DNA from: an uncultured Acidobacteriota bacterium | GTDB taxonomy: Bacteria; Acidobacteriota; Thermoanaerobaculia; UBA5066; DATFVB01 | Length of the DNA stretch: 64,000 nucleotides | Assembly: GCA_963714035.1 (NCBI GenBank) | Contig: OY970224.1 | Span: forward strand, 1,375,688 to 1,439,687 | Direction of reading: 5' to 3' | Shown here: positions 2,414-53,798 of the stretch, piece by piece | Position numbering within the stretch: position 1 is the first letter of the stretch | Layout: every line of letters starts with the position of its first letter | Notes under the pieces: model-generated | Database searches by the model: none | What the model saw: only the letters and a program-made list of their open reading frames with translations | What the model was told of the DNA's origin: nothing | Program-made: the position numbers and the translations under genes

Positions 2414-2534
2414 CCCGGGGCCGGTTTCCGAGTCGCGATCCCGCTCTCCGGGAGCCGTGTGGCTCGTCGGCCAGGCCGGCGGTCGCGGCCGGCGCGACCC
2501 GAGGCGGCGCGCCCGATGGTGATGTAATCGCCGC

Positions 2535-12000: not shown

Positions 12001-12791
12001 CAGAGCACCTTCGCTTCTTCGCGGAGCAGCCGCGCGAGCTCGCGCGCCGCTCCGGCGGGGTCGGAGGCCGCGCCCTCGGCCGAGGACTTCGGATCGCCTC
12101 CCGGAACGAAATGGCACGGCTTCGGCGGCGGAGGCAGCTCGAGCCGCGAGAGCGTCGTCTTCGGGGCGTGAGCCTCCGCGGCGCGTTCCTGGATCGGCTT
12201 CTTCTTCGCCGCCATGATTCCCTTGAGCGAGGCGTAGCGCGGCTCGTTCAGGCCCTTCTGGGCCGTGATCACGCAGGGCAGCGGGGACTCGACGTGCTCG
12301 TGCGCGCCTTCGATCTCGCGCTCGCAGGCGACCTTGCCGTCTCCCGCTTCGAACTTGACGACGTTAGCGACGTGCGGAACGCCGAGGAGCTCGGCGACCA
12401 TCGGCCCGACGAGAGACTCATCGAACCCGACGCCCTTCTGCCCGAACCACACGACGTCGCGGGGAACGTCCTTCACGGCCGCGGCGATGTTCTTGGCGAC
12501 CGCGAGCGCGTCCAGCGCATCGCCCTTCGAATCGATCCAGATGCCGTCGTCGGCGCCGCGGGCGAGGCATTCCCGGATGCCGGTCTTCGCGCGCTCCGGC
12601 CCGAGCGCAAGGACGGTCACCGTTCCCGCGCCCTTCGATTCCTTCGTCTTGATCGCCTCCTCGAGCGCGAACTCGTCGTAGGGCGAGACGATCCATTTCA
12701 CGTCGGACTCGTCGATCGACTTCCCGTCGGCGGCGACCTTGATCTTCGTCTCGGTGTCGGGAACGTAGGCGATGCAGACGATCGAATTCAT
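12000..12791 (-). CDS. etfB: Electron transfer flavoprotein beta subunit
   Basis: MNSIVCIAYVPDTETKIKV... with the EtfB signature (VSPYDEFALEEA). ATG at 12789-12791 (rc). Confidence 0.9.
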   Translation of the reverse strand: MNSIVCIAYVPDTETKIKVAADGKSIDESDVKWIVSPYDEFALEEAIKTKESKGAGTVTVLALGPERAKTGIRECLARGADDGIWIDSKGDALDALAVAKNIAAAVKDVPRDVVWFGQKGVGFDESLVGPMVAELLGVPHVANVVKFEAGDGKVACEREIEGAHEHVESPLPCVITAQKGLNEPRYASLKGIMAAKKKPIQERAAEAHAPKTTLSRLELPPPPKPCHFVPGGDPKSSAEGAASDPAGAARELARLLREEAKVL

Positions 12792-13174: not shown

Positions 13175-14425
<1,251 letters not shown>

Positions 14426-14428
14426 GGG

Positions 14429-14674
14429 TCAGCTTTTCTGCGCGTGCTTTTCGATGTAGTCGTAAGCGTCCTTGACCTTCTGGATCTTCTCGGCGTCCTC
14501 ATCCGGAATCTGGATGTTGAACTCCTCCTCGAAGGCCATGACCAACTCCACCGTGTCGAGCGAATCGGCGCCGAGATCGTCGACGAAGGAGGCTTCGGGC
14601 GTCACTTGCGCGGCATCGACCCCCAGCTGCTCGACGATCTTGCTCTTCACGCGCTCCTGAATGCTGTCCGCCAT
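14429..14674 (-). CDS. acpP: Acyl carrier protein
   Basis: [19 protein letters not shown]...[20 protein letters not shown] (phosphopantetheine Ser in DSLD). RBS GGAGGAG upstream of ATG 14672-14674. Confidence 0.9.
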
Positions 14675-14765
14675 CACTCCTCCTCGATCCAAATCTCTCG
14701 TTTTTAGCGCCTCGCGCCCAAGCCCGCGTATTCTACACGAGGGCATTCTTCCCGCAACCGGGCTT

Positions 14766-16574
14766 CTAGAGGGCCGGTCCCTCCGCCCCGAGCAGCTCGC
14801 GGCGAATCAGGGCGATCGGGATCGCTCCTTCCTTCAGGAACGCGTCGTGGAACTTCCCGAGATCGAAGGAAGCCCCTTCCCGGGCCTTCATCTGGTCGCG
14901 AAGCCGGACGATCATGAGCTTGCCGAGCTGGTAGCGGAGGTAACCGGGGTCCTGCGTCCCCCGCAGTGCCTCGACCATGGCGTTGTGGGGCGTCATGAAG
15001 GCGTTCTTCTGAAAGAACGCCGCCGCCTCGTCGACCGTCATCCCTTCGGTGTGAAGGGCGATTCCCGCCAGATAGCGGCACGCCCGCTGGAGCGCCGCCT
15101 GGATCTGCGCCAGCCGGTAGCTCGGATCGTCCCCGTGGAGCCCCTGGTCCAGCATCATCTCCTCGCAGTAGAGGGCCCACCCCTCGGCGTTGGCGCCCGA
15201 CGCGAAGAGCGACCGCACCCGGTCGGGATTCAGGCGGTTGTTCAGGAACTGCGCGTAGTGCCCGGGATACACCTCGTGGGCGGAAAAATTCGAGATCGAG
15301 GGAGCCGAGAAGAACTCGAGGAGCTGTTCGGCCTGTTCCGGCTTCCAGGACGGCTCGGGAAGCGTGACGTTGAAATAGGCCTCGGTCGCCTTCTCGAACG
15401 GGCCGGGCGTGTCCATCGACGCGAACGACGTCGCGCGCGCGAAGGGCGGCGTCTCCTGCACGATCGGCCGGACCTCGGAGGGCAGCGTCGCGAGCCGGTG
15501 CGAAACGACGAACGCGCGAAGATCCTCGAGCCCGGCCTTCACCGCCGGGATCACCTGGCTCGCCTCGGGATGCCGGCGCGCGAGGGCCTGATAGACCTCG
15601 GCGGGCGGCTTGCCCGGATCGATCTTCGCGGCCGTCTCCCGGAACTCGGCGAGCAGCCGGGCGAGCTCCTTCTTTCCGATGTCCTCGAGCGTCGAGATCG
15701 GCGTGTCGACCATGTCGTCGTCGGCGAGCATGCGCTGGTAGGCCGACGCACCGATCGCGAAATGCCCGTTCGCCCTCGTCAGGAGGTCGTCGTTCAGCCA
15801 CTTTCCGTAGGCTTCGATCGCCTCGATGACGCGCGCGTTCGCGTCGGCGAACGACTTCTTCGCCGGCCCCTCCGGGACGGCCGCGAAAGCCGCCGGCAGG
15901 TCGTTCCGGAAGAAGGAGAGCGTTCCCGGCATCTGCCGGAGCGCGATCTCGACCGAGACTTTCGGAGTCTCTCCGGGCGTCAGCATCGCGCGGGCGGCGG
16001 CGAGATTGGCGAGCGAGGCCCGCTCCCGCGCGGCCGCGATGCGCATTCGCTCGGCGAGCGGCGCGAAGTCGCGCTGGATCAGGCCGTAGATCGCGGCGGT
16101 CGGCAGATAGGAACCCGGATTGACGCGGGCCGTCTTCCATTCCGTCTCGCGGAGGACCTGGCCGTCGATGAACGCCAGCAGCCATTCCCGGTCCGACGCC
16201 TCGTGCGGGGAGAGGCCGCGCGGGTCGATCGACGAGAACCTTTTCTTCCAGGCGAGGGCCTGCGCGAGACGGCGGCGTCCGCCTTCCGCGGACCGGTCCG
16301 TGACGAGCTCGTCGAAGCGGTGCTCCCCTTCCTCCGTGGCGAGCTCGGGATGGAGCCGGAAGTTCTCCTCGACGAAACGGTCCACCTCGGTCTTGAAGGC
16401 TCCATCCCCGGAGCCGGCCGCGGCCATCGTGGAAGTTGCGGCCGGCGAGGCCGCGAGGGCGGCCGGCGACGCCGCGAGGGCGGCCGGCGACGCCGCGAGG
16501 GCGGCCGGTGAGGCCGCGAGGAATGCTGTCGCCACCGCCGCGAGAACGACGATCGGAAGCCGGAAGTCACGCAT
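14766..16574 (-). CDS. Secreted DUF885 family protein (possible metallopeptidase-like), inserted between fabG and acpP
   Basis: Start [15 protein letters not shown] with RBS GAGGAGG. Signal region contains the (ASPAALA)n repeat. Body matches the DUF885 pattern from memory (…[11 protein letters not shown]…, [10 protein letters not shown]). The upstream part of the listed 907-aa ORF overlaps fabG and is not coding. Confidence 0.7.
16446..16524. repeat. 21-bp tandem repeat (~3.7 copies) encoding (ASPAALA)n in the DUF885 signal peptide
   Basis: cg(a/c)(g/c)gccgcgagggcggccgg repeated head to tail, 16446-16524. Confidence 0.8.
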
Positions 16575-16585
16575 CGAGAGCCTCC

Positions 16586-17326
16586 TCACATGTACAGGCC
16601 GCCGGAGACGTTCAACACGTGCCCGGTGACGTATCCCGCCTCGTCGGAGGCCAGGTAAACGGCCGCCCCCGCGACATCCTCTCCCGAGCCGAGGCGCTGG
16701 AGCGGGATCTGGGAAGCAAGCGATTCCTTCGCGGCATCCGTCATCTTGTCCGTCATCGCCGAGGTGATGAAGCCGGGTGCGATCGCGTTGACGGTGACCT
16801 GCCGCGAGCCGACCTCCCGCGCGAGCGACTTCGTGAGACCGACGAGCGCCGCCTTCGCCGCGGCGTAGTTCGCCTGGCCCGCATTGCCCATCAGGGCCAC
16901 CACCGAGGTGATGTTGATGATCCGCCCCGAGCGCTGCCGGATCATCATCTTGATCGCGGCCTGCGAAAGCAGGAACGCGCCGGTCAGGTTCGTCGCGATC
17001 ACGCGATCCCACGACTCCTTCGTCATCCGCAGGATCAGGTTGTCTTCGGTGATGCCGGCATTGTTGACGAGGACGTCGAGGCGCCCCTCGCCGTCGGCGA
17101 TTCCCTTGATCGCGGCGGCGACCGAGGCCGGGTCCGCCACATCGAGGGAAACCGCGCGGGCCTTGCCGCCCGCCGCCTCGATCGATCCGACCAGCGTCGA
17201 GAGCTTGTCGGCGCTCCGCGCCGCGCAGAGGACGGTCGCGCCTTCCGATGCGAACCGGCGGGCGATCGCTTCGCCGATCCCCTGGGAAGCGCCCGTCACG
17301 AGCGCGATCTTTCCGTCCAATCGCAT
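16586..17326 (-). CDS. fabG: 3-oxoacyl-[ACP] reductase
   Basis: SDR motifs TGASQGIG, NNAG, YAAAKAA. ATG 17324-17326 with GGAGG RBS. Confidence 0.9.
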   Translation of the reverse strand: MRLDGKIALVTGASQGIGEAIARRFASEGATVLCAARSADKLSTLVGSIEAAGGKARAVSLDVADPASVAAAIKGIADGEGRLDVLVNNAGITEDNLILRMTKESWDRVIATNLTGAFLLSQAAIKMMIRQRSGRIINITSVVALMGNAGQANYAAAKAALVGLTKSLAREVGSRQVTVNAIAPGFITSAMTDKMTDAAKESLASQIPLQRLGSGEDVAGAAVYLASDEAGYVTGHVLNVSGGLYM

Positions 17327-17406
17327 CGGTTCCTCCCCGCTTTTCGAACGACTTTCTACCACGGCGGCGGCGCGAACCCGCGGGGACGCCGCGATAAGAT
17401 CCGGCC

Positions 17407-18855
17407 ATGGCCGAAGTTCCGAGTCTCTCCAGCTTCGTCGGCGGCGTTTTCCGCCCTCCGGCGCAGGCCGGCTTCGTCGACGACGTCAACCCTTCCGACG
17501 CCTCCGACGTGATCGCGCGCGTGCCGGCGGGCGATCCGTCCGACGTGGATGCCGCCGTCGAGTGGGCGGCGGGCGCGCTCCCCGCCTGGCGCGGCCGGAC
17601 CGGGCCGCAGCGGGCCGAAGCGCTCTGGGCCTGGAGCGACGCGATCGCGGCCCGGCGCGAAGAGATCGCGCAGATGATGGCGCGCGAGGTCGGAAAGCCG
17701 ATCAGCGAGGCGCGCGGAGAGGCGGCGAGATGCGTCGCGATCCTCCGGTACTACGCGGGCGAATCGGTGCGCGAGATCGGCGAGGTCATTCCCGCGCAGG
17801 CCGCCGGCGCGCTGCAGTTCACGCTTCGGGAGCCTCTCGGCGTCGTCGCGCTCATCACTCCGTGGAATTTCCCGACCGCGATCCCGCTCTGGAAAACCGC
17901 TCCGGCGCTCGCTTTCGGGAACGTCGTCGTGCTGAAGCCCGCCGAAGCCGCGTCCCGCTGCGCCGTGCTGCTCGCGGAAACTGCCGCGGCGGCGGGAATT
18001 CCTCCCGGCGTCTTCAACGTGGTCCTCGGCTCCGGCGGGAAGATCGGTCCCCCGCTCGTCGGGCACGAGCGCGTCCGGGCGGTGAGCTTCACGGGCTCCG
18101 GCAACGTCGGCGCGCAGATCGCGGCCGCGGCGTCGCGGCGGAACATCCGCTACCAGACCGAAATGGGGGGGAAGAACGTCGTGATCGTCGCGCCCGACGC
18201 GGATCTCGATCTCGCCGCGACGCTCACCGTCGCCGGCGCGATGCGCTACGCGGGGCAGAAGTGCACGGCGACGAGCCGCGCCGTCGTCGACCGCCGGGTG
18301 CGCGACGCCTTCCTCGCGAAGGTCCGGGACCAGGTCGACGCTCTCGTGCTCGGCCCGGTGACGGACCCGGGGGCCGCCGTAGGCCCGCTCATCAGCCGCG
18401 AATCACAGGAGTCAATCGGTCGCGCGCTCGCCGGCGCGGCGCCGGAAAGCGTTCACGGCGGGAGACTCCCCGCCGGAGAGGCATGGTCCCGAGGGTTCTT
18501 CTGCTCGCCGGCCGTCGTTCAGAACGCCGATCCCGACTCTCCGATCGCCCGGGACGAGCTCTTCGGTCCCGTCCTCGCGACGTTCGAAGCCTCCGATCTC
18601 GACGAGGCAATCGCGCTCGCCAACCGGACCGAGTACGGGCTCTCGGCTTCCCTGTTCACGCGCGACATCAAATCGGCGCTCGCGTTCATCCCGAAGATCG
18701 AGGTCGGCCTCGTCCGGATCAACGGCGACACGACCGGGGTCGATCCGCATGCGCCGTTCGGCGGGATGAAGGGCTCGAGCTCCGGGAGCCGCGAGCAGGG
18801 CCCGGCCGCGCGCGATTTCTACACCGAGATCAAGACGGTCCAGATCAATCCGTGA
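17407..18855 (+). CDS. NAD(P)-dependent aldehyde dehydrogenase; by context 2-oxoglutarate semialdehyde dehydrogenase
   Basis: ALDH family motifs (ITPWNFP, catalytic GQKCTA, ELGGK-like EMGGKN, FTGSGNVG). Context assignment only. Confidence 0.8.
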   Translation: MAEVPSLSSFVGGVFRPPAQAGFVDDVNPSDASDVIARVPAGDPSDVDAAVEWAAGALPAWRGRTGPQRAEALWAWSDAIAARREEIAQMMAREVGKPISEARGEAARCVAILRYYAGESVREIGEVIPAQAAGALQFTLREPLGVVALITPWNFPTAIPLWKTAPALAFGNVVVLKPAEAASRCAVLLAETAAAAGIPPGVFNVVLGSGGKIGPPLVGHERVRAVSFTGSGNVGAQIAAAASRRNIRYQTEMGGKNVVIVAPDADLDLAATLTVAGAMRYAGQKCTATSRAVVDRRVRDAFLAKVRDQVDALVLGPVTDPGAAVGPLISRESQESIGRALAGAAPESVHGGRLPAGEAWSRGFFCSPAVVQNADPDSPIARDELFGPVLATFEASDLDEAIALANRTEYGLSASLFTRDIKSALAFIPKIEVGLVRINGDTTGVDPHAPFGGMKGSSSGSREQGPAARDFYTEIKTVQINP

Positions 18856-19083
18856 TGTTGCTGTCGAGAGTGCTCATCGGCAGCTCACCGTCGAGAGCCT
18901 TCGTCGGCGTTGGAAAATTCGAAATCCGAAACGCCAGACTCGAACCAATCGCGAAAACCGAATGACCGAAATCGCAAAGCGGGACCCCGTTTCGAGCTTC
19001 GATATTTGGATTTGTTTCGGATTTCGAAATTCGGACTTCGAATTTTGGATGCCTCGAGCGCCGCGGTCGGGCGAACGCCACCG
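18856..19083. promoter_or_regulatory. Unusual low-GC intergenic region with multiple TTCGAA-centred palindromes and long imperfect inverted repeats upstream of the hydroxyproline epimerase gene
   Basis: aaattcgaaatccgaaac ... gtttcggatttcgaaattcggacttcgaatt; reverse-complementary arms ~18 nt long. GC content far below the ~70% window average. Confidence 0.35.
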
Positions 19084-20031
19084 ATGAAGCTTCCCGAGAA
19101 GATCCGCGTAATCGACTCCCACACCGAGGGCGAGCCGACCCGCGTCGTCGTCGAGGGATGGCCGCCGCCCGCGGGCGCGACGATGGAAGAGCGACGCCGG
19201 GACATGAAGGCGAACTTCGATCCCCTTCGACGCGCCGTCCTGTGCGAACCGCGCGGGCACGAGGCGGTCGTCGGGGCGCTGCTCACGCCGCCCGTGCACG
19301 ACGGATCGCTCGCCGGCGTCGTCTTCTTCGACAACGCCGCTTATCTCGGGATGTGCGGCCACGGAACGATGGGGGTCGTCCGGACGCTCGAATACCTGGG
19401 GCGCCTCGCGCCGGGCCCCGTCGCGCTCGACACGCCCGCTGGCACGGTTTGTGCCGAGCTCGCCGTGGACGGCTCCGTCACGATCGAGAACGTCCCGGCG
19501 TTCCTGCACGCCCGGGACGTCTCGGTCGAGGTGCCGGGCGTGGGCCGCGTGACCGGCGACGTCGCGTACGGCGGAAACTGGTTCTTCATCACGCCCTGGG
19601 AGCCTCCGCTCGTGGCTTCCGACATCGACGAGCTCACGCGGGTCACGCGCGCGATCTCGGAGGCGCTCCGGCGGGACGGGGCGACCGGCGCCGGCGGCGC
19701 GGAAATCGATCACATCGTGCTGTTCGGCGAGAGCGACCGTCCCGACGCCGACCGCAAGAATTTCGTGCTTTGCCCGGGAAACGCGTACGACCGCTCGCCG
19801 TGCGGCACCGGAACGTCGGCGACGATGGCGATGCTGCACGGGCGCGGACGCCTCGCCCTCGGCCAGGTCTGGCGGCAGGAAAGCATCATCGGCAGCCTTT
19901 TCCAGGGCTGGCTCTCCGCGCGGGGCGATGCCCTCGTGCCGCACGTGCGAGGGACGGCGTTCGTGACGGGAGAGGCCACCCTGCGCTTCGATCCGCGAGA
20001 CCCGTTCCGGCTGGGGATTCCGCCGGCATGA
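19084..20031 (+). CDS. 4-hydroxyproline 2-epimerase (proline racemase family)
   Basis: IRVIDSHTEGEPTRVV N-terminus. Both catalytic Cys contexts present (LGMCGHGT and SPCGTGTSA), i.e. Cys/Cys = epimerase/racemase type. Strongly resembles Pseudomonas HypE/LhpA as recalled. Confidence 0.85.
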   Translation: MKLPEKIRVIDSHTEGEPTRVVVEGWPPPAGATMEERRRDMKANFDPLRRAVLCEPRGHEAVVGALLTPPVHDGSLAGVVFFDNAAYLGMCGHGTMGVVRTLEYLGRLAPGPVALDTPAGTVCAELAVDGSVTIENVPAFLHARDVSVEVPGVGRVTGDVAYGGNWFFITPWEPPLVASDIDELTRVTRAISEALRRDGATGAGGAEIDHIVLFGESDRPDADRKNFVLCPGNAYDRSPCGTGTSATMAMLHGRGRLALGQVWRQESIIGSLFQGWLSARGDALVPHVRGTAFVTGEATLRFDPRDPFRLGIPPA

Positions 20032-20167
20032 TCCGGCCGCGTTTCGAAGCCCGAAACCGTTTCGGAGCTCGGGAGGCCGGCGTTTCGTGTATTGTTTCGA
20101 GGCCGGTGTTGCGGATCCCGACCTCCCGGCGGGGGGCGCGTCCGTGTCGACTCCGGGATCGCCGGGC

Positions 20168-21286
20168 ATGACCCCGGACTCCTTCGACGCGATCGTCGTC
20201 GGCGCCGGGATCGTCGGGGCCGCCTGCGCCGAGGCTTTGTCGGCCGACGGAATGCGCGTCGCGGTCCTCGACGCGGCGTTCCCCGGCGGCGGCACGACGG
20301 CCGCGGGAATGGGCCATCTCGTCGCGATGGACGACTCCGAGCCCCAGCTCGCGTTGACGGGCTGGTCGAATCGGCTCTGGAAGGAGCGGGCAAGCTCCCT
20401 GCCCGCGGCCTGCGAGATGGATCCCTGCGGAACGCTCTGGGTCGCCGAAGACGGCCCGCAGATGGCCGAAGTCGAACGGAAGCGCGAGCGCTACGAGTCC
20501 CACGGCATCGCCGCGGAGGCTCTCGGACCGGCGGAGCTCGCGCGCGCCGAGCCGAACCTCCGCCCGGGCCTCGCGGGCGCGCTCCGGGTCCCGGGAGACG
20601 CGGTCCTGTATCCCCCGGGGGCCGCACGCGCGCTGCTCCAGTCGGCGCGAGCGCGCGGAGCGATCGTGCGGGCGGGGACGGAGGTGCGCGCGATCGGACC
20701 CGGCGAGGTCGAAACGGCGGCCGGAAACGTTCGCGCGCCGGTCGTCGTCAATGCGGCCGGTCCGCGCGCCGCCGAGCTCACGCCCGGGCTTCCCATCGTC
20801 CCGAGGAAGGGCCATCTGGTCATCACCGACCGCTACCCCGGTTTCTGCCGCCACGAGATCGTCGAGCTCGGATACCTCGCGAGCGCGCACAGGATGACCG
20901 CGGAATCCGTCGCCTTCAACGTCCAGCCGCGGGCGACCGGCCAGATCCTCATCGGCTCGTCCCGCGAGCTCGTCGGCTGGGACGCGGCCGTCAACCCGCG
21001 GGTCCTTTCGAAAATGCTCTCGCGCGCCCTCGATTTCCTTCCTTCTCTTCGCGCGCTCTCGGCGATCCGTACCTGGACCGGCTTCCGCCCGGCCACTCCC
21101 GACAGGCTTCCGATCATCGGCCGATGGCGGGGCGTGGACGGCCTCTGGATCGCGGCGGGACACGAGGGCCTCGGAATCACGACGTCGCTCGGCACGGGCC
21201 GGCTGATCGCGGACCTCGTCGCGGGGCGGCGGCCGCCGATCGACCCGGCGCCGTTCGATCCGAACCGCTCCGCCGCGGCCGCATGA
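20168..21286 (+). CDS. FAD-dependent oxidoreductase, beta subunit of a D-hydroxyproline dehydrogenase-like (opine-oxidase/HcnC-type) complex
   Basis: Dinucleotide fold DAIVVGAGIVGAACA at the chosen ATG 20168. ORF table starts at 20087, which would add 27 poorly conserved residues. DAO-family body. Confidence 0.75.
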   Translation: MTPDSFDAIVVGAGIVGAACAEALSADGMRVAVLDAAFPGGGTTAAGMGHLVAMDDSEPQLALTGWSNRLWKERASSLPAACEMDPCGTLWVAEDGPQMAEVERKRERYESHGIAAEALGPAELARAEPNLRPGLAGALRVPGDAVLYPPGAARALLQSARARGAIVRAGTEVRAIGPGEVETAAGNVRAPVVVNAAGPRAAELTPGLPIVPRKGHLVITDRYPGFCRHEIVELGYLASAHRMTAESVAFNVQPRATGQILIGSSRELVGWDAAVNPRVLSKMLSRALDFLPSLRALSAIRTWTGFRPATPDRLPIIGRWRGVDGLWIAAGHEGLGITTSLGTGRLIADLVAGRRPPIDPAPFDPNRSAAAA

Positions 21287-21537
21287 ACGAGTTTCCCCGC
21301 GTCCCGATCGTCGTCGACGATCGCCCCATCTCGGCGGAGGCGGGAACGACCGTCGCCGCCGCGCTCGTCAACGCGGGCGTCTCGGCTTTTCGCGGCTCGG
21401 TCACCGGCGCCCCGCGCGGGCCGCTCTGCGGAATGGGGATCTGCCACGAATGCCGCGTCACGATCGACGGCATCGCGCAGCGCCGCTCGTGCATGATCGA
21501 AGTGGCCGCGGGAATGCGGATCGAGACCCGTGGCTGA
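21283..21537 (+). CDS. 2Fe-2S ferredoxin-like small (gamma) subunit of the three-component oxidase
   Basis: 84 aa with Cys cluster CGMGICHECRV...C. ATGA overlap with the upstream gene. Confidence 0.75.
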   Translation: MNEFPRVPIVVDDRPISAEAGTTVAAALVNAGVSAFRGSVTGAPRGPLCGMGICHECRVTIDGIAQRRSCMIEVAAGMRIETRG

Positions 21538-22810
21538 ATCGCTCGCCGCGGACGTCGCGGTCGTGGGGGGTGGCCCGGCGGGAATCGCCGCCGCCGCCGT
21601 CGCGGCCGAGGCGGGAAAGCGGGTGCTGCTCCTCGAGGAGAACCCTCGCCCGGGCGGGCAGATCTGGCGGCATCGGGCAGGCGCGATCCCCCCGAAGGCT
21701 CGGCGCTGGATCGACCGTCTGGCCCGTTCGGGAGCGGTCCGCGTACCCGGCGCGGCCGTGCACGCGATCTCGGGAGCGTTCACGCTCTCCGCCGAAAGCG
21801 CCGGCGCGGCGATCACCGTCTCCGCGAAGACGCTCGTCGTCGCGACGGGCGCGCGCGAGCGATTTCTCCCGTTTCCGGGCTGGACCCTCCCGAACGTGAT
21901 CGGGATCGGCGGAGCGCAGGCGCTGCTGAAATCGGGCGTCTCTTTCTCCCAACGCCGCATCGTGATCGCCGGATCGGGTCCCCTCATCCTTCCCGTCGCG
22001 GCGTCGCTCGCGCGCGCCGGAGCCCGAATCGCCCTCGCCGCGGAGCAGGCGCCGGGCGGCGCCGTGATTCGCTTCGGCCTCGGGCTGTGGCGAGCTCCGG
22101 GACTGCTCGCCGACGCCGCGGGTTACCGCCGCGCCTTTCTCCGCACGCCCTACCGGTTCGGAACATGGGTGCTCGAAGCGCGCGGACGCGACCGGGTCGA
22201 GGAGGTCGTCGTCACCGACGGCAACGTGACGTGGACCGAGCGCTGCGATGTCCTCTGCACGGGATTCGGGCTCGTTCCGGCGACCGAGCTCGCCCGCCTC
22301 GCCGGATGCCGGATCGACGGCGACGCCGTCGCGGTCGACGAGCGGCAGGGCACATCCGTCGAGGGCGTTTTCTGCGTCGGCGAGGCATGCGGCGTCGGCG
22401 GCGTGGAGAAGGCGCTCGCCGAAGGCCAGGTCGCCGGGTGCGCCGCCGCCGGCCGGTCGCCGCGGCGCGGACCGGTAGCCGCCGCGCGCCGCGGTCGCCG
22501 CCACGCCGCCGCGCTCGATCGGGCGTTCCGGCTCCGGGAGGAGCTCCGTTCCCTTCCCCGGCCCGACACGATCGTCTGTCGCTGCGAAGACGTCCTGACC
22601 GCCGCACTCACCGCCGCCGGCTCCGCGCGGGAGGCGAAGCTCGCGGTCCGGGCGGGAATGGGCCCCTGCCAGGGGCGCGTCTGCGGCCCCGCGCTCCAAT
22701 ACCTTTTCGGCTGGGAATCGGATACCGTCCGCGTGCCGATCTCCCCCGTTTCGATCGGGACGCTCGCGGCGATCGACGCCGAAGCGCCTCCGCGCAAGGA
22801 GGGCGAATGA
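21530..22810 (+). CDS. FAD/NAD(P)-binding pyridine-nucleotide-disulfide-type oxidoreductase, alpha subunit (HcnB/OoxA/LhpF-like)
   Basis: VAVVGGGPAGIAAA and a second Rossmann stretch IVIAGSGPLILPVAASL; C-terminal Cys-rich segment (IVCRCEDV, GPCQGRVCGP). GTG start 21530 overlaps the gamma-subunit stop by 8 nt. Confidence 0.8.
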   Translation: MAESLAADVAVVGGGPAGIAAAAVAAEAGKRVLLLEENPRPGGQIWRHRAGAIPPKARRWIDRLARSGAVRVPGAAVHAISGAFTLSAESAGAAITVSAKTLVVATGARERFLPFPGWTLPNVIGIGGAQALLKSGVSFSQRRIVIAGSGPLILPVAASLARAGARIALAAEQAPGGAVIRFGLGLWRAPGLLADAAGYRRAFLRTPYRFGTWVLEARGRDRVEEVVVTDGNVTWTERCDVLCTGFGLVPATELARLAGCRIDGDAVAVDERQGTSVEGVFCVGEACGVGGVEKALAEGQVAGCAAAGRSPRRGPVAAARRGRRHAAALDRAFRLREELRSLPRPDTIVCRCEDVLTAALTAAGSAREAKLAVRAGMGPCQGRVCGPALQYLFGWESDTVRVPISPVSIGTLAAIDAEAPPRKEGE

Positions 22811-23709
22811 ACCGGACCGACTGGAAAGGGGTCTTCCCCGCGATCACGACGCCGTTCCGCGAAGGGCTCGCCGTCGATTTCGATTTCCTGCGCGAGCACG
22901 TCCGCTGGCTCCTCGAAAAGGGATGTTCGGGAATCGTTCCGCTGGGATCGCTCGGGGAATCCGCGACGCTCACGCTCGACGAGAAGCTCGCGATCCTGCA
23001 GACCTGCCGCGAAGCGGCCGGCGGCCGGGCGCCGGTGATCGCGGGAGTCGCCGGCCTTTCTACGGCCGAATGCGTCGCCCTCGCCCGGGGCGCGGAGGAG
23101 ACGGGGTGCGATGGCCTGATGGTCCTCCCCGCCTACGTGTATCGCGGGGACACCCGCGAGAGCGAGGCGCACGCCGCCGCCGTCCTCGACGCGACGGCCC
23201 TCCCCTGCATGCTCTACAACAACCCGATCGCCTACGGGACGGACTTCCTGCCGGCTCAGATCGCGACGCTCGCGCGCCGGCACCCGAACCTCCACGCCGT
23301 CAAGGAATCGGCCGGCGACGTCCGGCGCGTGACGGGGATCCGCGAGATCGCCGACGACCGCCTCGCGATCTTCGTCGGCATCGACGACATGATCGTCGAG
23401 GGGATCGCGGCTGGCGCCGTCGGCTGGATCGCCGGCCTCGTCAACGCGTTCCCGGCGGAGTCCGTCCTTCTCTTCGATCTCGCGATGCGCGGCGATCACG
23501 AGGAGGCGAGGCGACTCTACGAATGGTTCCTTCCGCTCCTGCGGCTCGACACGGTCCCGAAGTTCGTCCAGCTCATCAAGCTCGTGCAGCAGGAGGTCGG
23601 GCGCGGCAGCGAGCGCGTCCGCCCGCCGCGCCTGCCGCTCACGGGCGAGGAGCGCGAGGCGGCGTTCGACGTGATCCGGGGCGCGGTGCGCGCCCGCGTG
23701 ACGCTCTAA
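22807..23709 (+). CDS. Dihydrodipicolinate synthase family protein; by context delta1-pyrroline-4-hydroxy-2-carboxylate deaminase
   Basis: DHDPS/NAL family fold (GVFPAITTPF, ...VKESAGD... with Schiff-base Lys). ATGA overlap with the upstream gene. Confidence 0.85.
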   Translation: MNRTDWKGVFPAITTPFREGLAVDFDFLREHVRWLLEKGCSGIVPLGSLGESATLTLDEKLAILQTCREAAGGRAPVIAGVAGLSTAECVALARGAEETGCDGLMVLPAYVYRGDTRESEAHAAAVLDATALPCMLYNNPIAYGTDFLPAQIATLARRHPNLHAVKESAGDVRRVTGIREIADDRLAIFVGIDDMIVEGIAAGAVGWIAGLVNAFPAESVLLFDLAMRGDHEEARRLYEWFLPLLRLDTVPKFVQLIKLVQQEVGRGSERVRPPRLPLTGEEREAAFDVIRGAVRARVTL

Positions 23710-23745
23710 ACGGGCCCGCGGCGAGACGCCGCTCGCTGGCGCCGC

Positions 23746-25161
23746 TCAGCGCCCGCGAATCGTCTTTTCGACGTCGTTCGTTTCCCGAGGCGCTGCACAG
23801 GAAAGGCAGTCCATTCCGGAGGCGATCACGAGGACGTCGTCCTCGATCCGGACGCCGATGTTCCACCACTTCGGATCGACGTCCTTGGCGTGCTCCGGGA
23901 TGTAGATCCCCGGCTCGACCGTGAACGCCATCCCGGGTTCGAGCCGCGCCTGCGCGAGCGAGTAGCGCTCGAGACGGGGAGCATCGGGATTGGAGATCGC
24001 GTAGCTCCCGACGTCGTGGACGTCCATCCCGAGCCAGTGCGACGAGCCGTGCGGATAGAAAGCCGTGTACGCGCGCGTCTTCATGATTTCAGCCCGGTCG
24101 CCGTGGAGGATCCCGAGCCGCAGGAGCCCGTCCACGACGACGTCGACGGTCGCGTCGTGGACCTCGTGGAACGCGGCACCCGGACGGACCTTCGCGAAGC
24201 CCGCTTTCTGCGCCGCGAGCACGAGGTCGTAGATGGCCCGCTGTTCCGGTGAGAACCTCCCGGAAACCGGATAGCTCCGCGTGACGTCGGCCGCGTACAT
24301 GCCGTACTCGCAGGCGGAGTCGTTGACGATCGTCTCCCCGGCGCTCATTCGCCGGTCGTCGCGTTCGTAGTGCAGGATCACCGAGTTCGGACCCGATCCC
24401 ACGATCGAGGGATATGCCATCCGCAGCGCGCCGCCTGCCGTGCAGACCGATTCGAGCGCCGCGCGCACCTCGTACTCGTACTTCCCCGGACGGACGGCCT
24501 TCATCGCCGCGATGTGGCCTTCCGCGGAGAGCTCGGCGGCGCGGCGAAGGAGAGATTGCTCGGTCGCGTCCTTGACGAGCCGCAGGCGATGGACGAGCGG
24601 ACCGGCTTCCGCCGAAGGGCGGAGCTCCGCCGACTGGGCGTCGGCCGTCTCCCATGCGTCGTGGAGCTTTCCGCGGAACGCCGAGTCGCCGCCGTCGCTC
24701 CAGAGCAGCATCCGCGCGCCGCGCCAGAGACCCGGGATCTCCTTCCAGAAGTCCGCGGCGGCGTACGACGCGTCCGCGCGGAAGTCCGATTTCGCGCCCT
24801 CCAGTCCGGTGCGCCACCCGGTCCACTGCTCGGAAGCGAAGTCGCGGGGCCGCACGAACAGGAGGTACCGCGGTCCTTCGGCCGCGCCCGGCCGAAGGAC
24901 GAGGATCGCATCGGGCTCCGAGAGCCCGGTGAGGTACCAGAAGTCGGAGCTCTGGCGGTACAGGATGCCGACCTCCGACGCGACGTCGGGCGCCGCGCGG
25001 AAGACCGCGATCGACCCCGCCGGCATCGCCGCGAGGAACGCGGCGCGATGCGCCGCGAAGAACTCCGGGCCGGGCGCCGGAGCGGGCGAAGCCGCAGGGG
25101 CGCTCGCCGAAAACAGGAGGGCCGCCATCGCGGCCACGGAAGCAAAGCGGATCGTTCGCAT
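23746..25161 (-). CDS. Secreted Xaa-Pro aminopeptidase (M24B family)
   Basis: Signal peptide MRTIRFASVAAMAALLFSASAPAASPA; M24 metal ligands/motifs (YPSIVGSGPNSVILHY, HGSSHWLGMDVHDVG, EPGIYIPE). Strong GGAGG RBS. Its start lies 10 nt downstream of the fabD stop. Confidence 0.85.
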   Translation of the reverse strand: MRTIRFASVAAMAALLFSASAPAASPAPAPGPEFFAAHRAAFLAAMPAGSIAVFRAAPDVASEVGILYRQSSDFWYLTGLSEPDAILVLRPGAAEGPRYLLFVRPRDFASEQWTGWRTGLEGAKSDFRADASYAAADFWKEIPGLWRGARMLLWSDGGDSAFRGKLHDAWETADAQSAELRPSAEAGPLVHRLRLVKDATEQSLLRRAAELSAEGHIAAMKAVRPGKYEYEVRAALESVCTAGGALRMAYPSIVGSGPNSVILHYERDDRRMSAGETIVNDSACEYGMYAADVTRSYPVSGRFSPEQRAIYDLVLAAQKAGFAKVRPGAAFHEVHDATVDVVVDGLLRLGILHGDRAEIMKTRAYTAFYPHGSSHWLGMDVHDVGSYAISNPDAPRLERYSLAQARLEPGMAFTVEPGIYIPEHAKDVDPKWWNIGVRIEDDVLVIASGMDCLSCAAPRETNDVEKTIRGR

Positions 25162-25171
25162 TTTTCCTCCT

Positions 25172-26101
25172 TCAGGCGGAGATCTGGTCCGCTCTGCCGA
25201 TCGATGCGACGGGGAATTCCTTCCGGATGCGCCGGACGAGCCCCGAGAGGACCGCCCCGGGTCCCATTTCCAGGCCTTCGGTGACGCCCATGGCGGCGAG
25301 CCGCTCGACGGATTCGACCCAGCGGACCGGAGAGGCCACCTGCCGGGCGAGGGCGGCGCGCAATTCGACGGAATTCCTCGCCTCGCGCGCGTCGACGTTC
25401 GTCACGACGGGAATCCGGGGATCGGCGATCGCGAGTCCCTGCAGCACCGGCAGGAGCCGGTCCGCCGCCGGCTGCATGAGCGCGCAGTGGAAGGGCGCGG
25501 AGACGGGGAGAGGAACGGCCTTCTTCGCGCCGCGCTCGCGGCAGAGCTCCGAGGCCCGCGCGACGGCCTCCGCGTGCCCGGCGATGACCGTTTGCTCCGG
25601 CGAGTTGTAGTTGGCGGGCCCGACGATCTTCCCGGTCTCGACCGCCGCGTCCTCGCACGCGGAACCGACCGCCTCGGCCGCGAGCCCGAGGATCGCCGCC
25701 ATCGCGCCGATTCCTTCCGGCACCGCTTCCTGCATGAACCGGCCGCGCTCGTGGACGGTCCGGACGGCGTCGGAAAAAGACAGGGCTCCCGCCGCGACTC
25801 CCGCGGAATATTCGCCGAGCGAATGCCCGGCCGCCGCGGCCGCTCCGGCGAGCCTTTCCGGACGGCGCGCTTCGAGCACGCGCAGGACCGCGATCGAGTG
25901 CGTCAGGATCGCCGGCTGCGTGTTCGCGGTGCGCCGGAGGTCCTTCTCCGGTCCGTCGAAGCAGATCCGCGAGATCGCGAACCCGAGGGCGGCGTCGGCT
26001 TCGTCGAAGACGGCTTTCGCCTCGGGGAAGGCGTCGCAGAGGTCCTTTCCCATTCCGACGGACTGCGATCCCTGGCCGGGGAAAAGGAGCGCGAGCGGCA
26101 T
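25172..26101 (-). CDS. fabD: Malonyl-CoA:ACP transacylase
   Basis: LLFPGQGSQSVGMG, GHSLGEYSA active-site Ser motif. Confidence 0.9.
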   Translation of the reverse strand: MPLALLFPGQGSQSVGMGKDLCDAFPEAKAVFDEADAALGFAISRICFDGPEKDLRRTANTQPAILTHSIAVLRVLEARRPERLAGAAAAAGHSLGEYSAGVAAGALSFSDAVRTVHERGRFMQEAVPEGIGAMAAILGLAAEAVGSACEDAAVETGKIVGPANYNSPEQTVIAGHAEAVARASELCRERGAKKAVPLPVSAPFHCALMQPAADRLLPVLQGLAIADPRIPVVTNVDAREARNSVELRAALARQVASPVRWVESVERLAAMGVTEGLEMGPGAVLSGLVRRIRKEFPVASIGRADQISA

Positions 26102-26105
26102 GGGG

Positions 26106-27089
26106 CTACCAGCGCATCAGGGCCGCGCCCCACGTGAGGCCGGCGCCGAACGCGGTCATCAGCACGAGGTCGCCGCTCTTGACGCGCCCGCCGCGCGCGC
26201 ATTCGTCGAGCGCGATCGGGATCGACGCCGCCGACGTGTTTCCGTAGCGCTCGATGTTCTTGTAGACCTTGTTGGTGTCGATCTTGAGCTGCTTGCCGAC
26301 GGCGTCGATGATCCGCTCGTTCGCCTGGTGCGGGATGAAGAGCTGGATGTCGTCGTGCGTGAACCCCTGCTCCTCGAGGACCTCTTCGGAGACCTCGGCC
26401 ATCGCGCGCACCGCGACTTTGAAGGTTTCGTTCCCCTTCATCTTGATGAACGGGAGCCGCTCGTCGATCGAGGCCGGATCGTTCGCGGGGCGCGACGAGC
26501 CTCCGCCCGGCATGCAGATGAAGTCGCCGTAGTTGCCGTTGGACTTCATCGAGGAGCCGAGGATCCCGTGGTCGCCGCGCGTCGCCTGGAGGACCGCCGC
26601 GCCCGCCCCGTCGCCGAAGAGCACGCAGGTCGAGCGGTCGGTCCAGTCGACGTATCGGGAAAGGATCTCGCCGCCGACGAGGAGCACGTTGCCGGCCTTG
26701 CCCGACTGGATGAGGCCGTCGGCGAGGTGGAGGCCGTAGAGGAATCCGGTGCAGGCGGCGGAGAGATCCGAAGCCGCCGCCCTGACCGCGCCGATGTTGT
26801 TCTGGACGAGACATGCCGTCGACGGAAAGAGCATGTCGGAGGAGACGGTTCCGACGAGCACCATGTCGAGGTCCGCGGCAGCGACGCCGGCCGCGTCGAG
26901 CGCCCGCTGGGCCGCGCGCGTGGCGAGCTCGGAGAACTTCTCGCCCGGCGCGACGATGTGCCGCTCCTTGATCCCGGTCCGGGTCGTGATCCACTCGTCG
27001 GACGTCTCGACGATCTTCTCGAGGTCGGCGTTGGTGAGCAGGCGCTCGGGCACGCAGGAGCCCGTTCCGACGATCCTGGCTCTCAGCAT
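26106..27089 (-). CDS. fabH: 3-oxoacyl-[ACP] synthase III
   Basis: RIVGTGSCVPE..., active-site Cys in AACTGF; C-terminal HQAN and GNTSAASIPIAL. Confidence 0.9.
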   Translation of the reverse strand: MLRARIVGTGSCVPERLLTNADLEKIVETSDEWITTRTGIKERHIVAPGEKFSELATRAAQRALDAAGVAAADLDMVLVGTVSSDMLFPSTACLVQNNIGAVRAAASDLSAACTGFLYGLHLADGLIQSGKAGNVLLVGGEILSRYVDWTDRSTCVLFGDGAGAAVLQATRGDHGILGSSMKSNGNYGDFICMPGGGSSRPANDPASIDERLPFIKMKGNETFKVAVRAMAEVSEEVLEEQGFTHDDIQLFIPHQANERIIDAVGKQLKIDTNKVYKNIERYGNTSAASIPIALDECARGGRVKSGDLVLMTAFGAGLTWGAALMRW

Positions 27090-27280
27090 CTCGGTCGATT
27101 ATGACAGGGTTGGCCGTAGCGGCAATTCCCGAAAATCGCGCCCCGCCTGCCGTGAATGTCGGTTCAGATCGGCGGTGAGGCACGAGCCCCCGACTCGGAG
27201 CCTTGTCGTCCCGGCGGGCGCTGGAGCGGTCGAGCCCGATGCGCGCGAAGCGAGCCGCCGCTCTACGTCTTCCCGCTCTC

Positions 27281-27420
27281 GGTGGGGCGCCGGAGCGGTC
27301 GAGCCGGGAAGGCGAGCCGCGGAGGTCACCGCGCGATTAGTCTCCGCGAGTAACCGAGCGGAGGAGGATCGCGCGGTGGGAGGCCGAGCGGTTCCAGCGG
27401 AGCGTGCCGCTCGGCCGACG
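27281..27420. repeat. Structured REP-like repeat, family A, copy 1 (tandem with copy 2; period 260 bp)
   Basis: 140-nt core ~98% identical to 27541-27680. Contains nested perfect helices caccgcgcgat/atcgcgcggtg (27328-27338 / 27368-27378) and ctccgc/gcggag (27342-27347 / 27358-27363). Confidence 0.85.
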
Positions 27421-27540
27421 GGCGCAAGTGGAGCCGGGCCACGAATCGGTTCGGAACAACCTGAAAGCGCGGTGAGGCGCGAGCCCGGCGGGATGCGGTT
27501 GTCCTGGCCACGCGTTTCCAACTCGGCGGTTTGTCGTCCC

Positions 27541-27680
27541 GTTGGGGCGCCGGAGCGGCCGAGCCGGGAAGGCGAGCCGCGGAGGTCACCGCGCGATTAG
27601 TCTCCGCGAGTAACCGAGCGGAGGAGGATCGCGCGGTGGGAGGCCGAGCGGTTCCAGCGGAGCGTGCCGCTCGGCCGACG
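27541..27680. repeat. Structured REP-like repeat, family A, copy 2; ends 1 nt before the plsX stop codon (27682-27684)
   Basis: Same core as copy 1; located immediately 3' of minus-strand plsX. Confidence 0.85.
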
Positions 27681-27681
27681 G

Positions 27682-28701
27682 TTATTGGACGTGGGCGGAC
27701 TGTTCGCGCGAATGCAGATCCGCGATCGACTCCTGGATCCGCTCGGACATGCGCTTGCGCGAGAACTCGGCGGCGAGCCGGATCGCGTTCTTGATCGCCT
27801 TGGCGGAGGATCGGCCGTGGCCGATGATGCAGCACTTCTTGACCCCCAGGAGCGGCGCGCCGCCATACTCGGAGTAGTCGATGCGCGCCTTGAACGCGCG
27901 GAACGCGGACTTCGACAGGAGGAAGCCGATCGAGGCCTTCGCCGACTTCGTGATCTCCTCGCGGAGCGACTTCTGGATCATCTCCGCCAGCGACTCCGAG
28001 GCCTTCAGCAGGACGTTTCCGGTGAAGCCGTCCGTGACGATCACGTCGCACCGGCCGTTGAACACGTCGTTTCCCTCGACGTTCCCGATGAAGTTGAGGC
28101 CCGTCTCCTTGAGGACCTTGAAGGCCTCTTTCGTCTTGTCGGTCCCTTTCGTGTCCTCCTCACCGATCGACATCAGGCCGATGCGGGGGGCTTCCATGCC
28201 GAAGAGGAGCTGGGCGTAGAGATGGCCCATCACGGCGAATTCCCGGAAGTTGTTGTTCTTGCACTCCGGGTTGGCGCCGACGTCGAGGAGCAGGCAGAAG
28301 CCGGAAACGGTCGGGATGATCGCGGCGAGCGCCGGGCGGTCCACCCCTTCGATGGTCCCGATGACCATCTTGGCCGAAACCATCGCGGCCCCCGTGTGCC
28401 CCGCCGAGACGAGGCCGTCCGCCTTGCCTTCCCGCACGAGCCCGGCCGCCACACGGATCGACGAAAACCGCTTCTTCCGCACCGCCGCGACGGCCGCCTC
28501 GTCCATGCCGACGACCTCGGGAGCTTCGACGATCTCGATCGGGACGCCGCCGGTGTCCTTCCCTTGGAGGAGCGGGGCGATCCGGGCGCGCTGGCCGACC
28601 AGGATCGTCGAGACGCCGAATTCGCGGGCGGCCGCAATCGCCCCGTCGACGTTGACGTCGGGAGCGTGGTCCCCGCCCATGGCATCGACCGCGATCTTCA
28701 T
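27682..28701 (-). CDS. plsX: Phosphate acyltransferase
   Basis: MKIAVDAMGGDHAP...; family-typical GTDKTKE..., GNVLLK motifs. Confidence 0.9.
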   Translation of the reverse strand: MKIAVDAMGGDHAPDVNVDGAIAAAREFGVSTILVGQRARIAPLLQGKDTGGVPIEIVEAPEVVGMDEAAVAAVRKKRFSSIRVAAGLVREGKADGLVSAGHTGAAMVSAKMVIGTIEGVDRPALAAIIPTVSGFCLLLDVGANPECKNNNFREFAVMGHLYAQLLFGMEAPRIGLMSIGEEDTKGTDKTKEAFKVLKETGLNFIGNVEGNDVFNGRCDVIVTDGFTGNVLLKASESLAEMIQKSLREEITKSAKASIGFLLSKSAFRAFKARIDYSEYGGAPLLGVKKCCIIGHGRSSAKAIKNAIRLAAEFSRKRMSERIQESIADLHSREQSAHVQ

Positions 28702-28902: not shown

Positions 28903-29469
28903 TCAGACCTCTTGTTTCAGACTCTTCAGCACTTCCAGCCGCGGATCGACCGGGCGGGTTTCACAGGAGCATTCGGAGACGTTCCGGTCCCGCCCGCACT
29001 GCGGGCAGAGCCCCCGGCAGTCGTCGCGGCAGAGCGGCTTCATCGGAAGGGCCATCAGGACCTGCTCGCGCGCGATCTCGTCGAAAGGCAGCACCGGCTC
29101 GTCGAAGAACACGACGTCGATCTCGGCCGGGTCCACCTCCCGCTCTTCGCCTTCCCCGTCGGCGGACCGCCCCTTCTCGGGTTTTCCGCCCGGCGCCGCG
29201 GGGCGCTTGCGGAGGCGGAGGTGCAGCGGCACCGCCTCGGAGAACGCGTACGGGGCGACGCAGCGGGAGCAGTCGAGCTCGCCCGACCAGGTCAGCTCCC
29301 CGTCGAGCAGGTAGTTCTCGTCCACGGACGTGATCGTGCCGCTCATCCGGATGGGAGAGAGGGAAACGAGGGGATCCCCGCCGAGCTCGGCGCCGGAAAG
29401 CGTCGTCTCGCCGGAGAACTCCAGGGGCTTTTCTCGCGCCCCTTCCAGGTGAATACGCGGCTCGGCCAT
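28903..29469 (-). CDS. yceD: YceD/DUF177 family protein (large ribosomal RNA subunit accumulation protein)
   Basis: Position immediately upstream of rpmF-plsX; C-terminal CxxC...CPQCG...C pattern typical of DUF177. Confidence 0.8.
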
Positions 29470-29570
29470 CGGAACTCGTAAAGATAGGAAAATACGGGGA
29501 TTCTGTCAAATCGGCGGCGCGAACGGACCGGCGCGCCGAATCCCGGCGGCTCCGGAACGTCGCCCGTACA

Positions 29571-53786: not shown

Positions 53787-53798
53787 GCGGCCGACGGT

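Follow-up and report, generated by a model that had tools for sequence, protein, structure and literature searches.

A fatty-acid synthesis gene cluster carrying two predicted exported peptidase-type genes and divided by a hydroxyproline operon in a clade of Thermoanaerobaculia

Few gene arrays of bacteria are as conserved as the fatty-acid synthesis (fab) cluster, which often serves as a synteny anchor. Here, we describe a remodelled version of this cluster in an uncultured Acidobacteriota bacterium (assembly GCA_963714035.1, contig OY970224.1, positions 1,375,688 to 1,439,687), the window being the whole stretch of 64,000 nt that was analysed. The G+C content of this DNA is ~70% and a G+C content at third codon positions (GC3) of 0.85-0.94 marks the real genes, whose families were called with Pfam and NCBIfam. 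On the minus strand, the cluster opens with yceD (DUF177; 28903..29469, Pfam YceD 4.4e-22), followed by rpmF for ribosomal protein L32 (28718..28900, Pfam Ribosomal_L32p 1.5e-25) and plsX (27682..28701, Pfam FA_synthesis 5e-111). A 592-bp spacer (27090..27681), in which a repeat finder located two copies of a 145-nt repeat, separates plsX from fabH (26106..27089; NCBIfam beta-ketoacyl-ACP synthase III, 444.8 bits versus a cut-off of 249) and from fabD, whose start lies 4 nt past the fabH stop (25172..26101; TIGR00128 fabD, 337.5 bits versus a cut-off of 260.9). Directly downstream of fabD, still on the minus strand, lies a gene encoding an AMP_N and Peptidase_M24 protein, hereafter M24 (23746..25161; Pfam AMP_N 2.3e-25, Peptidase_M24 8.2e-59). 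A plus-strand operon of six genes with the composition of a trans-4-hydroxy-L-proline catabolic pathway (17407..23709, from Pfam and NCBIfam best matches; hereafter the hyp operon) then intervenes. The minus strand resumes with fabG (16586..17326; TIGR01830 3-oxoacyl-ACP reductase, 318.6 bits versus a cut-off of 297.75), a gene for a DUF885 protein of 602 aa (14766..16574; Pfam DUF885, 306.2 bits over profile positions 1-531 of 532), acpP (14429..14674; Pfam PP-binding 9.3e-15, 92-98% identity to relatives), fabF, which starts 3 nt past the acpP stop (13175..14425; Pfam ketoacyl-synt N and C domains), etfB (12000..12791; Pfam ETF) and etfA (11029..12000; Pfam ETF_alpha).

All eight canonical fab-cluster genes, from yceD to fabF, are hence found with family-level support, and the order and identities proposed in the first-pass annotation of this DNA are borne out for every gene that it named, at or near the positions that it gave. 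FabG, FabD and FabH score above the NCBIfam trusted cut-offs and are, by this measure, the housekeeping genes. A second, decoy fabG is ruled out, fabG passing the FabG equivalog cut-off. The cluster is not a contiguous, co-directional array: M24, DUF885, the opposite-strand operon of 6.3 kb and the repeat-bearing spacer interpose, and the distance from fabD to fabG reaches 7,845 bp.

Both peptidase-type genes closely follow a fab gene. The fabD TGA is followed by 10 nt (AGGAGGAAAA, containing AGGAGG) and the M24 ATG, exactly the spacing and strong ribosome-binding site that had been claimed for this junction. Likewise, the fabG TGA is followed by the DUF885 ATG after 11 nt (GGAGGCTCTCG, containing GGAGG); the tight spacing reported earlier holds, its length being corrected from 12 to 11 nt. 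Further downstream, 91 nt separate the DUF885 TAG from the acpP ATG, while fabG and the divergent aldehyde dehydrogenase gene of the hyp operon share a spacer of 80 bp (17327-17406). No promoter-like site was called at fabD/M24 or fabG/DUF885 by the consensus scan, which picked out just two sites of sigma-70 type in 17 kb, and the terminator scan returned no terminator-like site at these or any other junctions (overall, such sites were less frequent than chance would give). When folded as RNA, the junction regions did no better than shuffled sequences (z from -1.8 to +1.4). Terminators between fabD and M24 or between fabG and DUF885, which the first-pass annotation had considered as an objection to joint transcription, were thus seen neither in the scan nor in the folds. 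The comparison with related genomes that it had suggested revealed that relatives keep both junctions tight: the fabD/M24 gaps in relatives are -4 (an overlap), 10, 30 and 51 nt, and the fabG/DUF885 gaps range from 10 to 16 nt across relatives. The conservation of these tight junctions, with their Shine-Dalgarno (SD) sequences, argues for co-transcription of M24 with fabHD and of DUF885 with fabG. Alternatively, M24 and DUF885 might be merely adjacent to the fab genes, being expressed from their own promoters within the 3' ends of fabD and fabG and separately regulated (e.g., by peptide availability), with the fab transcripts ending before them. In E. coli, promoters inside coding regions of the fab cluster are known, including the fabH promoter within plsX (review PMC3896788), and the fabD-M24 spacer is longer in loci L082 (51 nt, with a small inverted repeat) and L088 (30 nt). 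We nevertheless regard this explanation as unlikely, given that the scans and folds of both junctions were negative, that SD sequences fill the 10-11 nt spacers and that fabD and M24 overlap by 4 nt in a compact relative from JGI.

Over its entire length, the M24 protein can be aligned to structures of aminopeptidase P (5WZE, E = 3.5e-102; E. coli 1A16) and, in the 5WZE alignment, keeps the motifs vnDs...aaDvTR, HWLGMDVHD, vEPGiY and RIEDD. These motifs hold the conserved metal ligands, five in number and, by reference to E. coli PepP, D, D, H, E and E. It has in common with aminopeptidase P (PepP, MEROPS M24B) the AMP_N plus M24 pita-bread architecture; with 339.8 bits against NF008131, below the cut-off of 465, it is a member of the family and not a PepP equivalog. 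E. coli PepP is cytoplasmic, whereas the M24 protein has an extra N-terminal segment of ~34 aa with, as judged by eye, the n-h-c organization of a signal peptide, making it probably exported, and is encoded inside a fab operon. It is hence predicted to be an exported M24B Xaa-Pro aminopeptidase and a homologue of aminopeptidase P.

The DUF885 protein also has a signal-peptide-like n-h-c N-terminus, again judged by eye. It matches PDB 3U24 (E = 5e-53) as well as the structural-genomics entries 3O0Y and 3IUK, and an AlphaFold2 model (pLDDT 81) submitted to Foldseek retrieved three DUF885 structures first (E from 8e-24 to 1e-14), with E = 7.8e-24 and template-modelling (TM) scores of 0.72-0.79 for 3U24. 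The protein therefore has the fold of these DUF885 (PF05960) structures, in addition to its full-length profile match, but among the lineages sampled a member of this family was observed between fabG and acpP only in this clade. The similarity of the model to ACE and ACE2 is weak (E ~6e-3, TM ~0.33, rmsd ~14 A). The residues H433-E434-x-x-P-G-H439 ... E464-G-W are invariant in 26 DUF885 sequences and define a motif, HEVxPGH...EGW in this clade, whose spacing differs from that of the canonical HExxH. Pfam assigns DUF885 to the Peptidase_MA clan (PMC12572635), and a literature search found no functional study and no demonstrated activity for any DUF885 member. From its fold and motif, the protein is predicted to be an ACE-like helical, zinc-hydrolase-like, exported protein of peptidase type. 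The earlier proposal that two secreted, apparently unrelated proteins are embedded in lipid-synthesis units thus stands for the embedding and for the signal-peptide-like N-termini, but the two are not unrelated to each other, both being predicted exported proteins of peptidase type. Immediately after the DUF885 signal peptide, a 21-nt tandem repeat present four times (16438-16521, 95% matches) encodes (ASPAALA)x4; DUF885 is 572-580 aa long in relatives versus 602 aa in the window, pointing to a recent in-frame expansion.

The arrangement is shared with relatives. The order fabG-DUF885-acpP-fabF-etfB-etfA was found in a locus from ENA (L081), in four JGI samples (L082-L085) and in a 375-kb JGI contig (L086), with DUF885 identities to the window of 85%, 82% and 69%, respectively. 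M24 lies right after fabD in L082, L088, L104 and a JGI contig of 146,920 bp. In L082 and L088, the order is fabD-M24-FGE-sulfatase-[hyp operon, other strand]-fabG-DUF885, the L088 M24 being 72% identical to that of the window. The 146,920-bp contig carries ten co-directional genes, yceD-rpmF-plsX-fabH-fabD-M24-fabG-DUF885-acpP-fabF, and no hyp operon; its fabD and M24 overlap by 4 nt, its DUF885 starts 10 nt past fabG, and the identities to the window are 65% for M24, 62% for DUF885 and 85% for FabF. Locus L104 (GCA_036704645.1) is also co-directional, with the succession fabD-10 nt-M24-1 nt-orf541-58 nt-fabG-10 nt-DUF885-98 nt-acpP (M24 65%, DUF885 67%), and in L086 unrelated genes and a terminator-like hairpin stand ahead of fabG-DUF885-acpP-fabF. 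A motif found upstream of acpP (see below) retrieved ten metagenome contigs, of which five (L091, L097-L100) have an aldehyde dehydrogenase gene divergent from fabG. Outside this group, two outgroup loci (L032 and L054, FabF 66%) have a canonical, uninterrupted plsX-fabD-fabG-acpP-fabF array. M24 homologues at 62-64% identity from other lineages (L089, L090) and DUF885 homologues at 55-63% from Binatia-labelled metagenome-assembled genomes (MAGs; L001-L006, L101-L103) are located outside fab clusters. Among the matches listed for the DUF885 query in genome contigs, most were relatives at 39-45% from other phyla, and none of the six loci at 55-62% had fab neighbours. FabF outlines the clade, its identities forming a group at 82-97% before dropping to 77% or less, and FabF proteins 91-94% identical to that of the window are named 'Thermoanaerobaculia bacterium'.

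In view of this distribution, it is hardly credible that the arrangement stems from faulty assembly or binning, or that the block is a very recent foreign island in a genome whose true fab operon is contiguous. The source is a metagenome-assembled genome, near-complete in that a 100% identical M24 protein is found on a 3.84-Mb contig, which leaves some room for such an explanation. However, the fabD-M24, hyp<>fabG, fabG-DUF885 and DUF885-acpP junctions were found again in assemblies made independently from different samples, which excludes the assembly error envisaged in the first-pass annotation. Moreover, the inserted genes match their flanks in composition (G+C 0.68-0.74 and GC3 0.85-0.91 in the fab, the peptidase and the hyp genes, with no compositional break), and the hyp genes of relatives are 58-85% identical, implying a long vertical residence. 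A recently acquired foreign island is ruled out by this composition together with the presence shared with relatives.

The hyp operon, absent from the compact relatives, encodes an aldehyde dehydrogenase (17407-18855) whose best NCBIfam match is a GucD-type alpha-ketoglutarate semialdehyde (alpha-KGSA) dehydrogenase (535 versus a cut-off of 770), a 4-hydroxyproline (4-Hyp) epimerase of the proline-racemase family (~19084-20031; best NCBIfam match 4-hydroxyproline epimerase, 357 versus a cut-off of 450), three D-Hyp dehydrogenase subunits called by Pfam, i.e., DAO (20087-21286), the small 2Fe-2S protein Fer2_4 (21283-21537) and Pyr_redox_2 (21530-22810), and a DHDPS-family deaminase (22807-23709, Pfam). 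The epimerase and the alpha-KGSA dehydrogenase score below their equivalog cut-offs and the specificity for Hyp is predicted from the families. The trans-4-hydroxy-L-proline pathway comprises 4HypE, a D-Hyp dehydrogenase or oxidase, a pyrroline-4-hydroxy-2-carboxylate (Pyr4H2C) deaminase and an alpha-KGSA dehydrogenase (PMC4113996). As in bacterial hydroxyproline clusters, all four enzyme families are adjacent here, the dehydrogenase being a three-part enzyme (DAO, 2Fe-2S, Pyr_redox_2); in contrast to these clusters, the operon sits inside a fab cluster and has no adjacent regulator or transporter gene. It is convergent with M24, their stop codons being 36 bp apart. Peptidase genes cluster with hydroxyproline catabolic genes in collagen-utilisation loci, such as the Colwellia cluster (PMC7883544), whereas here the Xaa-Pro peptidase gene is on the opposite strand, behind fabD. 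A functional fit between M24 and the adjacent pathway is plausible, an Xaa-Pro(Hyp) peptidase being a sensible neighbour for it. Within the operon, the aldehyde dehydrogenase gene and that of the 4-Hyp epimerase are separated by 228 bp (18856-19083) with a G+C dip to ~0.64 and repeated TTCGAAA/TTCGGA/CCGAAA units (with a Tandem Repeats Finder array at 19016-19050); these two genes abut in L088, and in the window this spacer may serve as an operator array or as a regulatory region inside the operon.

Promoter-like elements precede several genes of the cluster. The promoter scan called TTGACA-17-TATCTT upstream of yceD (29481-29509, minus strand), where L088 has the same motif, and TTGCCG-16-(TG)CATAAT upstream of fabH (27098..27125, minus strand), ending 8 nt before the ATG. 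In L088, plsX and fabH are joined by 15 nt with GGAGG; in the window, the 592-bp repeat-bearing spacer takes the place of this junction and the fabH start has no SD, which would correspond to a new, possibly leaderless fabH start. Inspection of the sequence and alignment of relatives disclosed an extended -10-like element upstream of fabG, TGGTAGAAA (17353-17361, minus strand), ~26 nt before the ATG. This motif, or TG(G/C)TAAGCT (T-A-G-TAAGCT in L100, CATAAT in L104), occurs at a distance of 20-30 nt from the fabG ATG in each of the ten contexts that were compared, nine fabG upstream regions having been aligned. The first-pass annotation had placed a new fabG promoter in the 80-bp divergent region: a conserved -10-like element indeed lies there, but it is probably not new, since L086 and the co-directional L104, both without the hyp insertion, also have it. 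The fabG promoter thus probably predates the split. On the other strand of the same region, TAAGAT (17395-17400, plus strand) lies 6 nt before the ATG of the aldehyde dehydrogenase gene, which has no SD, and the alignments of relatives also show TAAGAT-like hexamers 6-7 nt before this ATG, on the strand opposite to the fabG motif; this suggests that the aldehyde dehydrogenase transcript may be leaderless. The occurrence of -10-like hexamers 6-8 nt ahead of SD-less starts at both fabH and the aldehyde dehydrogenase gene is suggestive of leaderless mRNAs in this acidobacterium.

The element upstream of acpP, TTGCGG-16-TAGAAT (14730..14757, minus strand), lies inside the 91-nt DUF885-acpP spacer and was recognized by its conservation. 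The 18-mer TCGTGTAGAATACGCGGG is identical in L081, L082, L086, L104 and the ten metagenome contigs, while its flanks diverge, and a TTGC(G/C)(G/C)-16/17-TAGAAT block precedes acpP in every relative, with or without DUF885 upstream. Taken together, these elements point to a modular cluster of four putative units: P-yceD (yceD-rpmF-plsX), P-fabH (fabH-fabD-M24), P-fabG (fabG-DUF885) and P-acpP (acpP-fabF, perhaps with etfBA). The hyp operon would then have been inserted exactly between two of these units.

DUF885 has not been retained everywhere. In L091, L097, L098, L099 and L100, fabG and acpP are separated by 83-442 nt, in which blastn and tblastn detected no DUF885 gene or remnant. In a bootstrapped neighbour-joining tree of fabG and fabF codons, L091, L097 and L099 are sister to the window (91% bootstrap), inside a clade of 100% support that also contains L082, in which DUF885 is present, and L100, in which it is absent; the tree outgroups L081 and L086 both carry DUF885. 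At least one secondary loss, and probably two, are indicated by this topology. At the fabG-acpP site DUF885 is, from these genomes, dispensable, and its clean absence in nested relatives implies that it is not an obligatory part of the lipid operon.

The M24/fabG boundary, on the most parsimonious reading, is a site of repeated change, being either empty, occupied by orf541, by an FGE-sulfatase gene and the hyp operon or by the hyp operon alone, or rearranged; the window represents the 'hyp operon only' state. The split of the fab operon that had been described is therefore real, but it was not a single event, compact relatives carrying M24 and DUF885 without the hyp operon. That a more distant relative is contiguous and has both M24 and DUF885 implies that these two genes are older than the hyp insertion. 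Parsimony hence favours M24 and DUF885 as old residents of a once contiguous, co-directional operon, into which the hyp operon (plus the FGE-sulfatase gene in some relatives) would have been inserted later at the M24/fabG boundary. Two further occupants of this site were noted. In L104, a secreted protein of 541 aa without Pfam match is encoded at 1472-3097, starting 1 nt past the M24 stop; the FGE-sulfatase-domain gene is located at 2186-2926 in L082 and at 11399-12495 in L088, the latter having also a DUF7310-like open reading frame, and neither of these genes occurs in the window.

We therefore consider it rather likely that the locus is a lineage-specific, modular type II fatty-acid cluster of a clade of Thermoanaerobaculia (Acidobacteriota), in which the peptidase genes travel as passengers. 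In the ancestor of this clade, two exported-peptidase-type genes would have become lodged in a co-directional cluster, M24 directly after fabD and DUF885 directly after fabG. Each, being in close translational coupling with the preceding fab gene, would most likely be the last gene of its unit, fabH-fabD-M24 or fabG-DUF885. With several internal promoters (yceD, fabH, fabG and acpP), such a cluster could be cut between units harmlessly. In the sub-lineage of the window, a complete hydroxyproline operon would have been inserted at the M24/fabG unit boundary in the opposite orientation, next to an Xaa-Pro peptidase able to supply the substrate of the operon, and a dispersed hairpin repeat would later have been inserted between plsX and fabH. 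The peptidase genes would thus use the fab promoters for peptide and hydroxyproline scavenging and are probably not parts of lipid synthesis.

Several observations weigh against this proposal. Both genes are held at their exact positions, with translational coupling, over ~35-40% protein divergence, which exceeds what neutral passengers would need. In three other lineages, DUF885 homologues have fab, etf or acyl-CoA dehydrogenase genes as neighbours, hinting at a functional tie. The trees rest on two genes from metagenome contigs, in which recombination could mimic a nested loss, and promoters within the 3' ends of fabD or fabG may drive M24 or DUF885 independently. Finally, the fabG and acpP motifs conform only in part to the sigma-70 consensus and escaped the scan, being recognized as putative promoters by their conservation.

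On a rival view, the position would have been selected, DUF885 and perhaps M24 acting on a lipid-linked or envelope substrate or being needed in step with membrane lipid synthesis. In addition to the DUF885 position and its 10-16 nt coupling to fabG being conserved across the clade, DUF885 homologues adjoin fatty-acyl metabolism genes in other lineages, and the family has no assigned function. DUF885 homologues were observed divergent to yceD..fabF-etfBA in L032 and L054, to an acyl-CoA dehydrogenase gene in Binatia-labelled loci (L001, L002, L101-L103) and to etfB-etfA in six MAG loci of Melainabacteria/Obscuribacterales (L008, L011, L012, L013, L020, L043). Such functional integration is, in our judgement, improbable. 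Indeed, DUF885 was deleted without remnant in nested relatives having intact fabG, acpP and fabF; of the 80 genome loci listed as matches to DUF885, ~60 have no fab, etf or acyl-CoA dehydrogenase neighbour; and a signal peptide and an ACE-like peptidase-clan fold are at odds with cytoplasmic fatty-acid synthesis. Besides, electron-transfer flavoprotein (ETF) and acyl-CoA dehydrogenase take part in amino-acid catabolism too, an equally good fit for a peptidase, and the category of 'lipid-related neighbour' was defined after the data had been seen. That DUF885 itself is tied to acyl-lipid or acyl-CoA metabolism, for example as an exported zinc hydrolase with lipid-modified peptides or envelope lipoproteins as its substrates, has in our view only a slim chance of being correct. 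If so, the fab-operon context would be the first functional clue for the family, and its placements in the other lineages would share the same cause.

Compared with the fab cluster of E. coli, the one described here shares all eight genes and their relative order, and a ribosomal protein gene accompanies the lipid genes in both. E. coli has a separate promoter before acpP, which is a strong one, and another for fabH (PMC3896788), and promoter-like elements are found at both places here. Unlike in E. coli, M24 and DUF885 are embedded in the cluster, fabD and fabG lie 7.8 kb apart with an opposite-strand operon between them, a 592-bp spacer filled with repeats separates plsX from fabH, and etfBA follows fabF. 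In addition, fabG has its own conserved promoter-like element here, whereas the fabG of E. coli is reported to be devoid of a promoter directly upstream (PMC3896788). The arrangement is thus a lineage-specific variant of a well-known cluster, real but fairly ordinary, and not a new kind of system. What it illustrates is that, in one acidobacterial clade, the fab cluster stably carries two exported peptidase-type genes; that separately promoted units would let a catabolic operon break in and divide it where two units meet; and that a member of the array, DUF885, can be cleanly deleted again. It also warns annotators that location in a fab operon is by itself no proof of a role in lipid synthesis. 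Moreover, the gene context offers a weak hint about DUF885, and hydroxyproline catabolism may plausibly draw substrate from the M24 Xaa-Pro peptidase. The arrangement is mainly of value as a well-documented case of a remodelled operon in a phylum that has received little study, and it opens no major question.

The repeat in the plsX-fabH spacer is a GC-rich, hairpin-forming element of 145 nt with four copies in the 64 kb (27277-27421, 27537-27681, 53656-53797 and 43494-43634), at identities of 78-100%. A search with a 35-nt pattern returned only the two plsX-fabH copies, which are 98% identical, and BLAST added the two diverged ones. The repeats formerly noticed between plsX and fabH are thus confirmed as two copies, resembling repetitive extragenic palindromic (REP) sequences in being dispersed and rich in hairpins. 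Neither the window as a whole nor the plsX-fabH spacer had an Rfam match. The element is, like REP sequences, bacterial interspersed mosaic elements or miniature inverted-repeat transposable elements (MITEs), short, hairpin-rich, dispersed and intergenic, but it is unrelated to any Rfam family. A related form occupies the fabG-acpP gap of L100 (2892-3140), and three copies begin directly past a stop codon, namely that of plsX (27682), that of an open reading frame ending at 53799 and that of the L100 fabG. The RNA of the repeat folds at -71 kcal/mol (z = -3.6). It may act as a 3'-end stabiliser or a terminator, or be a mobile REP/MITE-like element.

The flank beyond fabF was also found to be constant in part. 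In all relatives (L081-L086), fabF is followed by etfB-etfA and a small AF_1845-like gene (10475-10969 in the window). Just past etfA, a Peptidase_S9 gene of the prolyl oligopeptidase family (8650-10488, plus strand) and a DPP III-like Peptidase_M49 gene (6608-8590, minus strand) bring to four the peptidase-type genes within ~19 kb around the fab and etf genes (M49, S9, M24 and DUF885). In the window, 383 nt with several GC hairpins separate fabF from etfB; this distance shrinks to 10 nt in L086, so that ETF may join the acpP-fabF unit in part of the clade.

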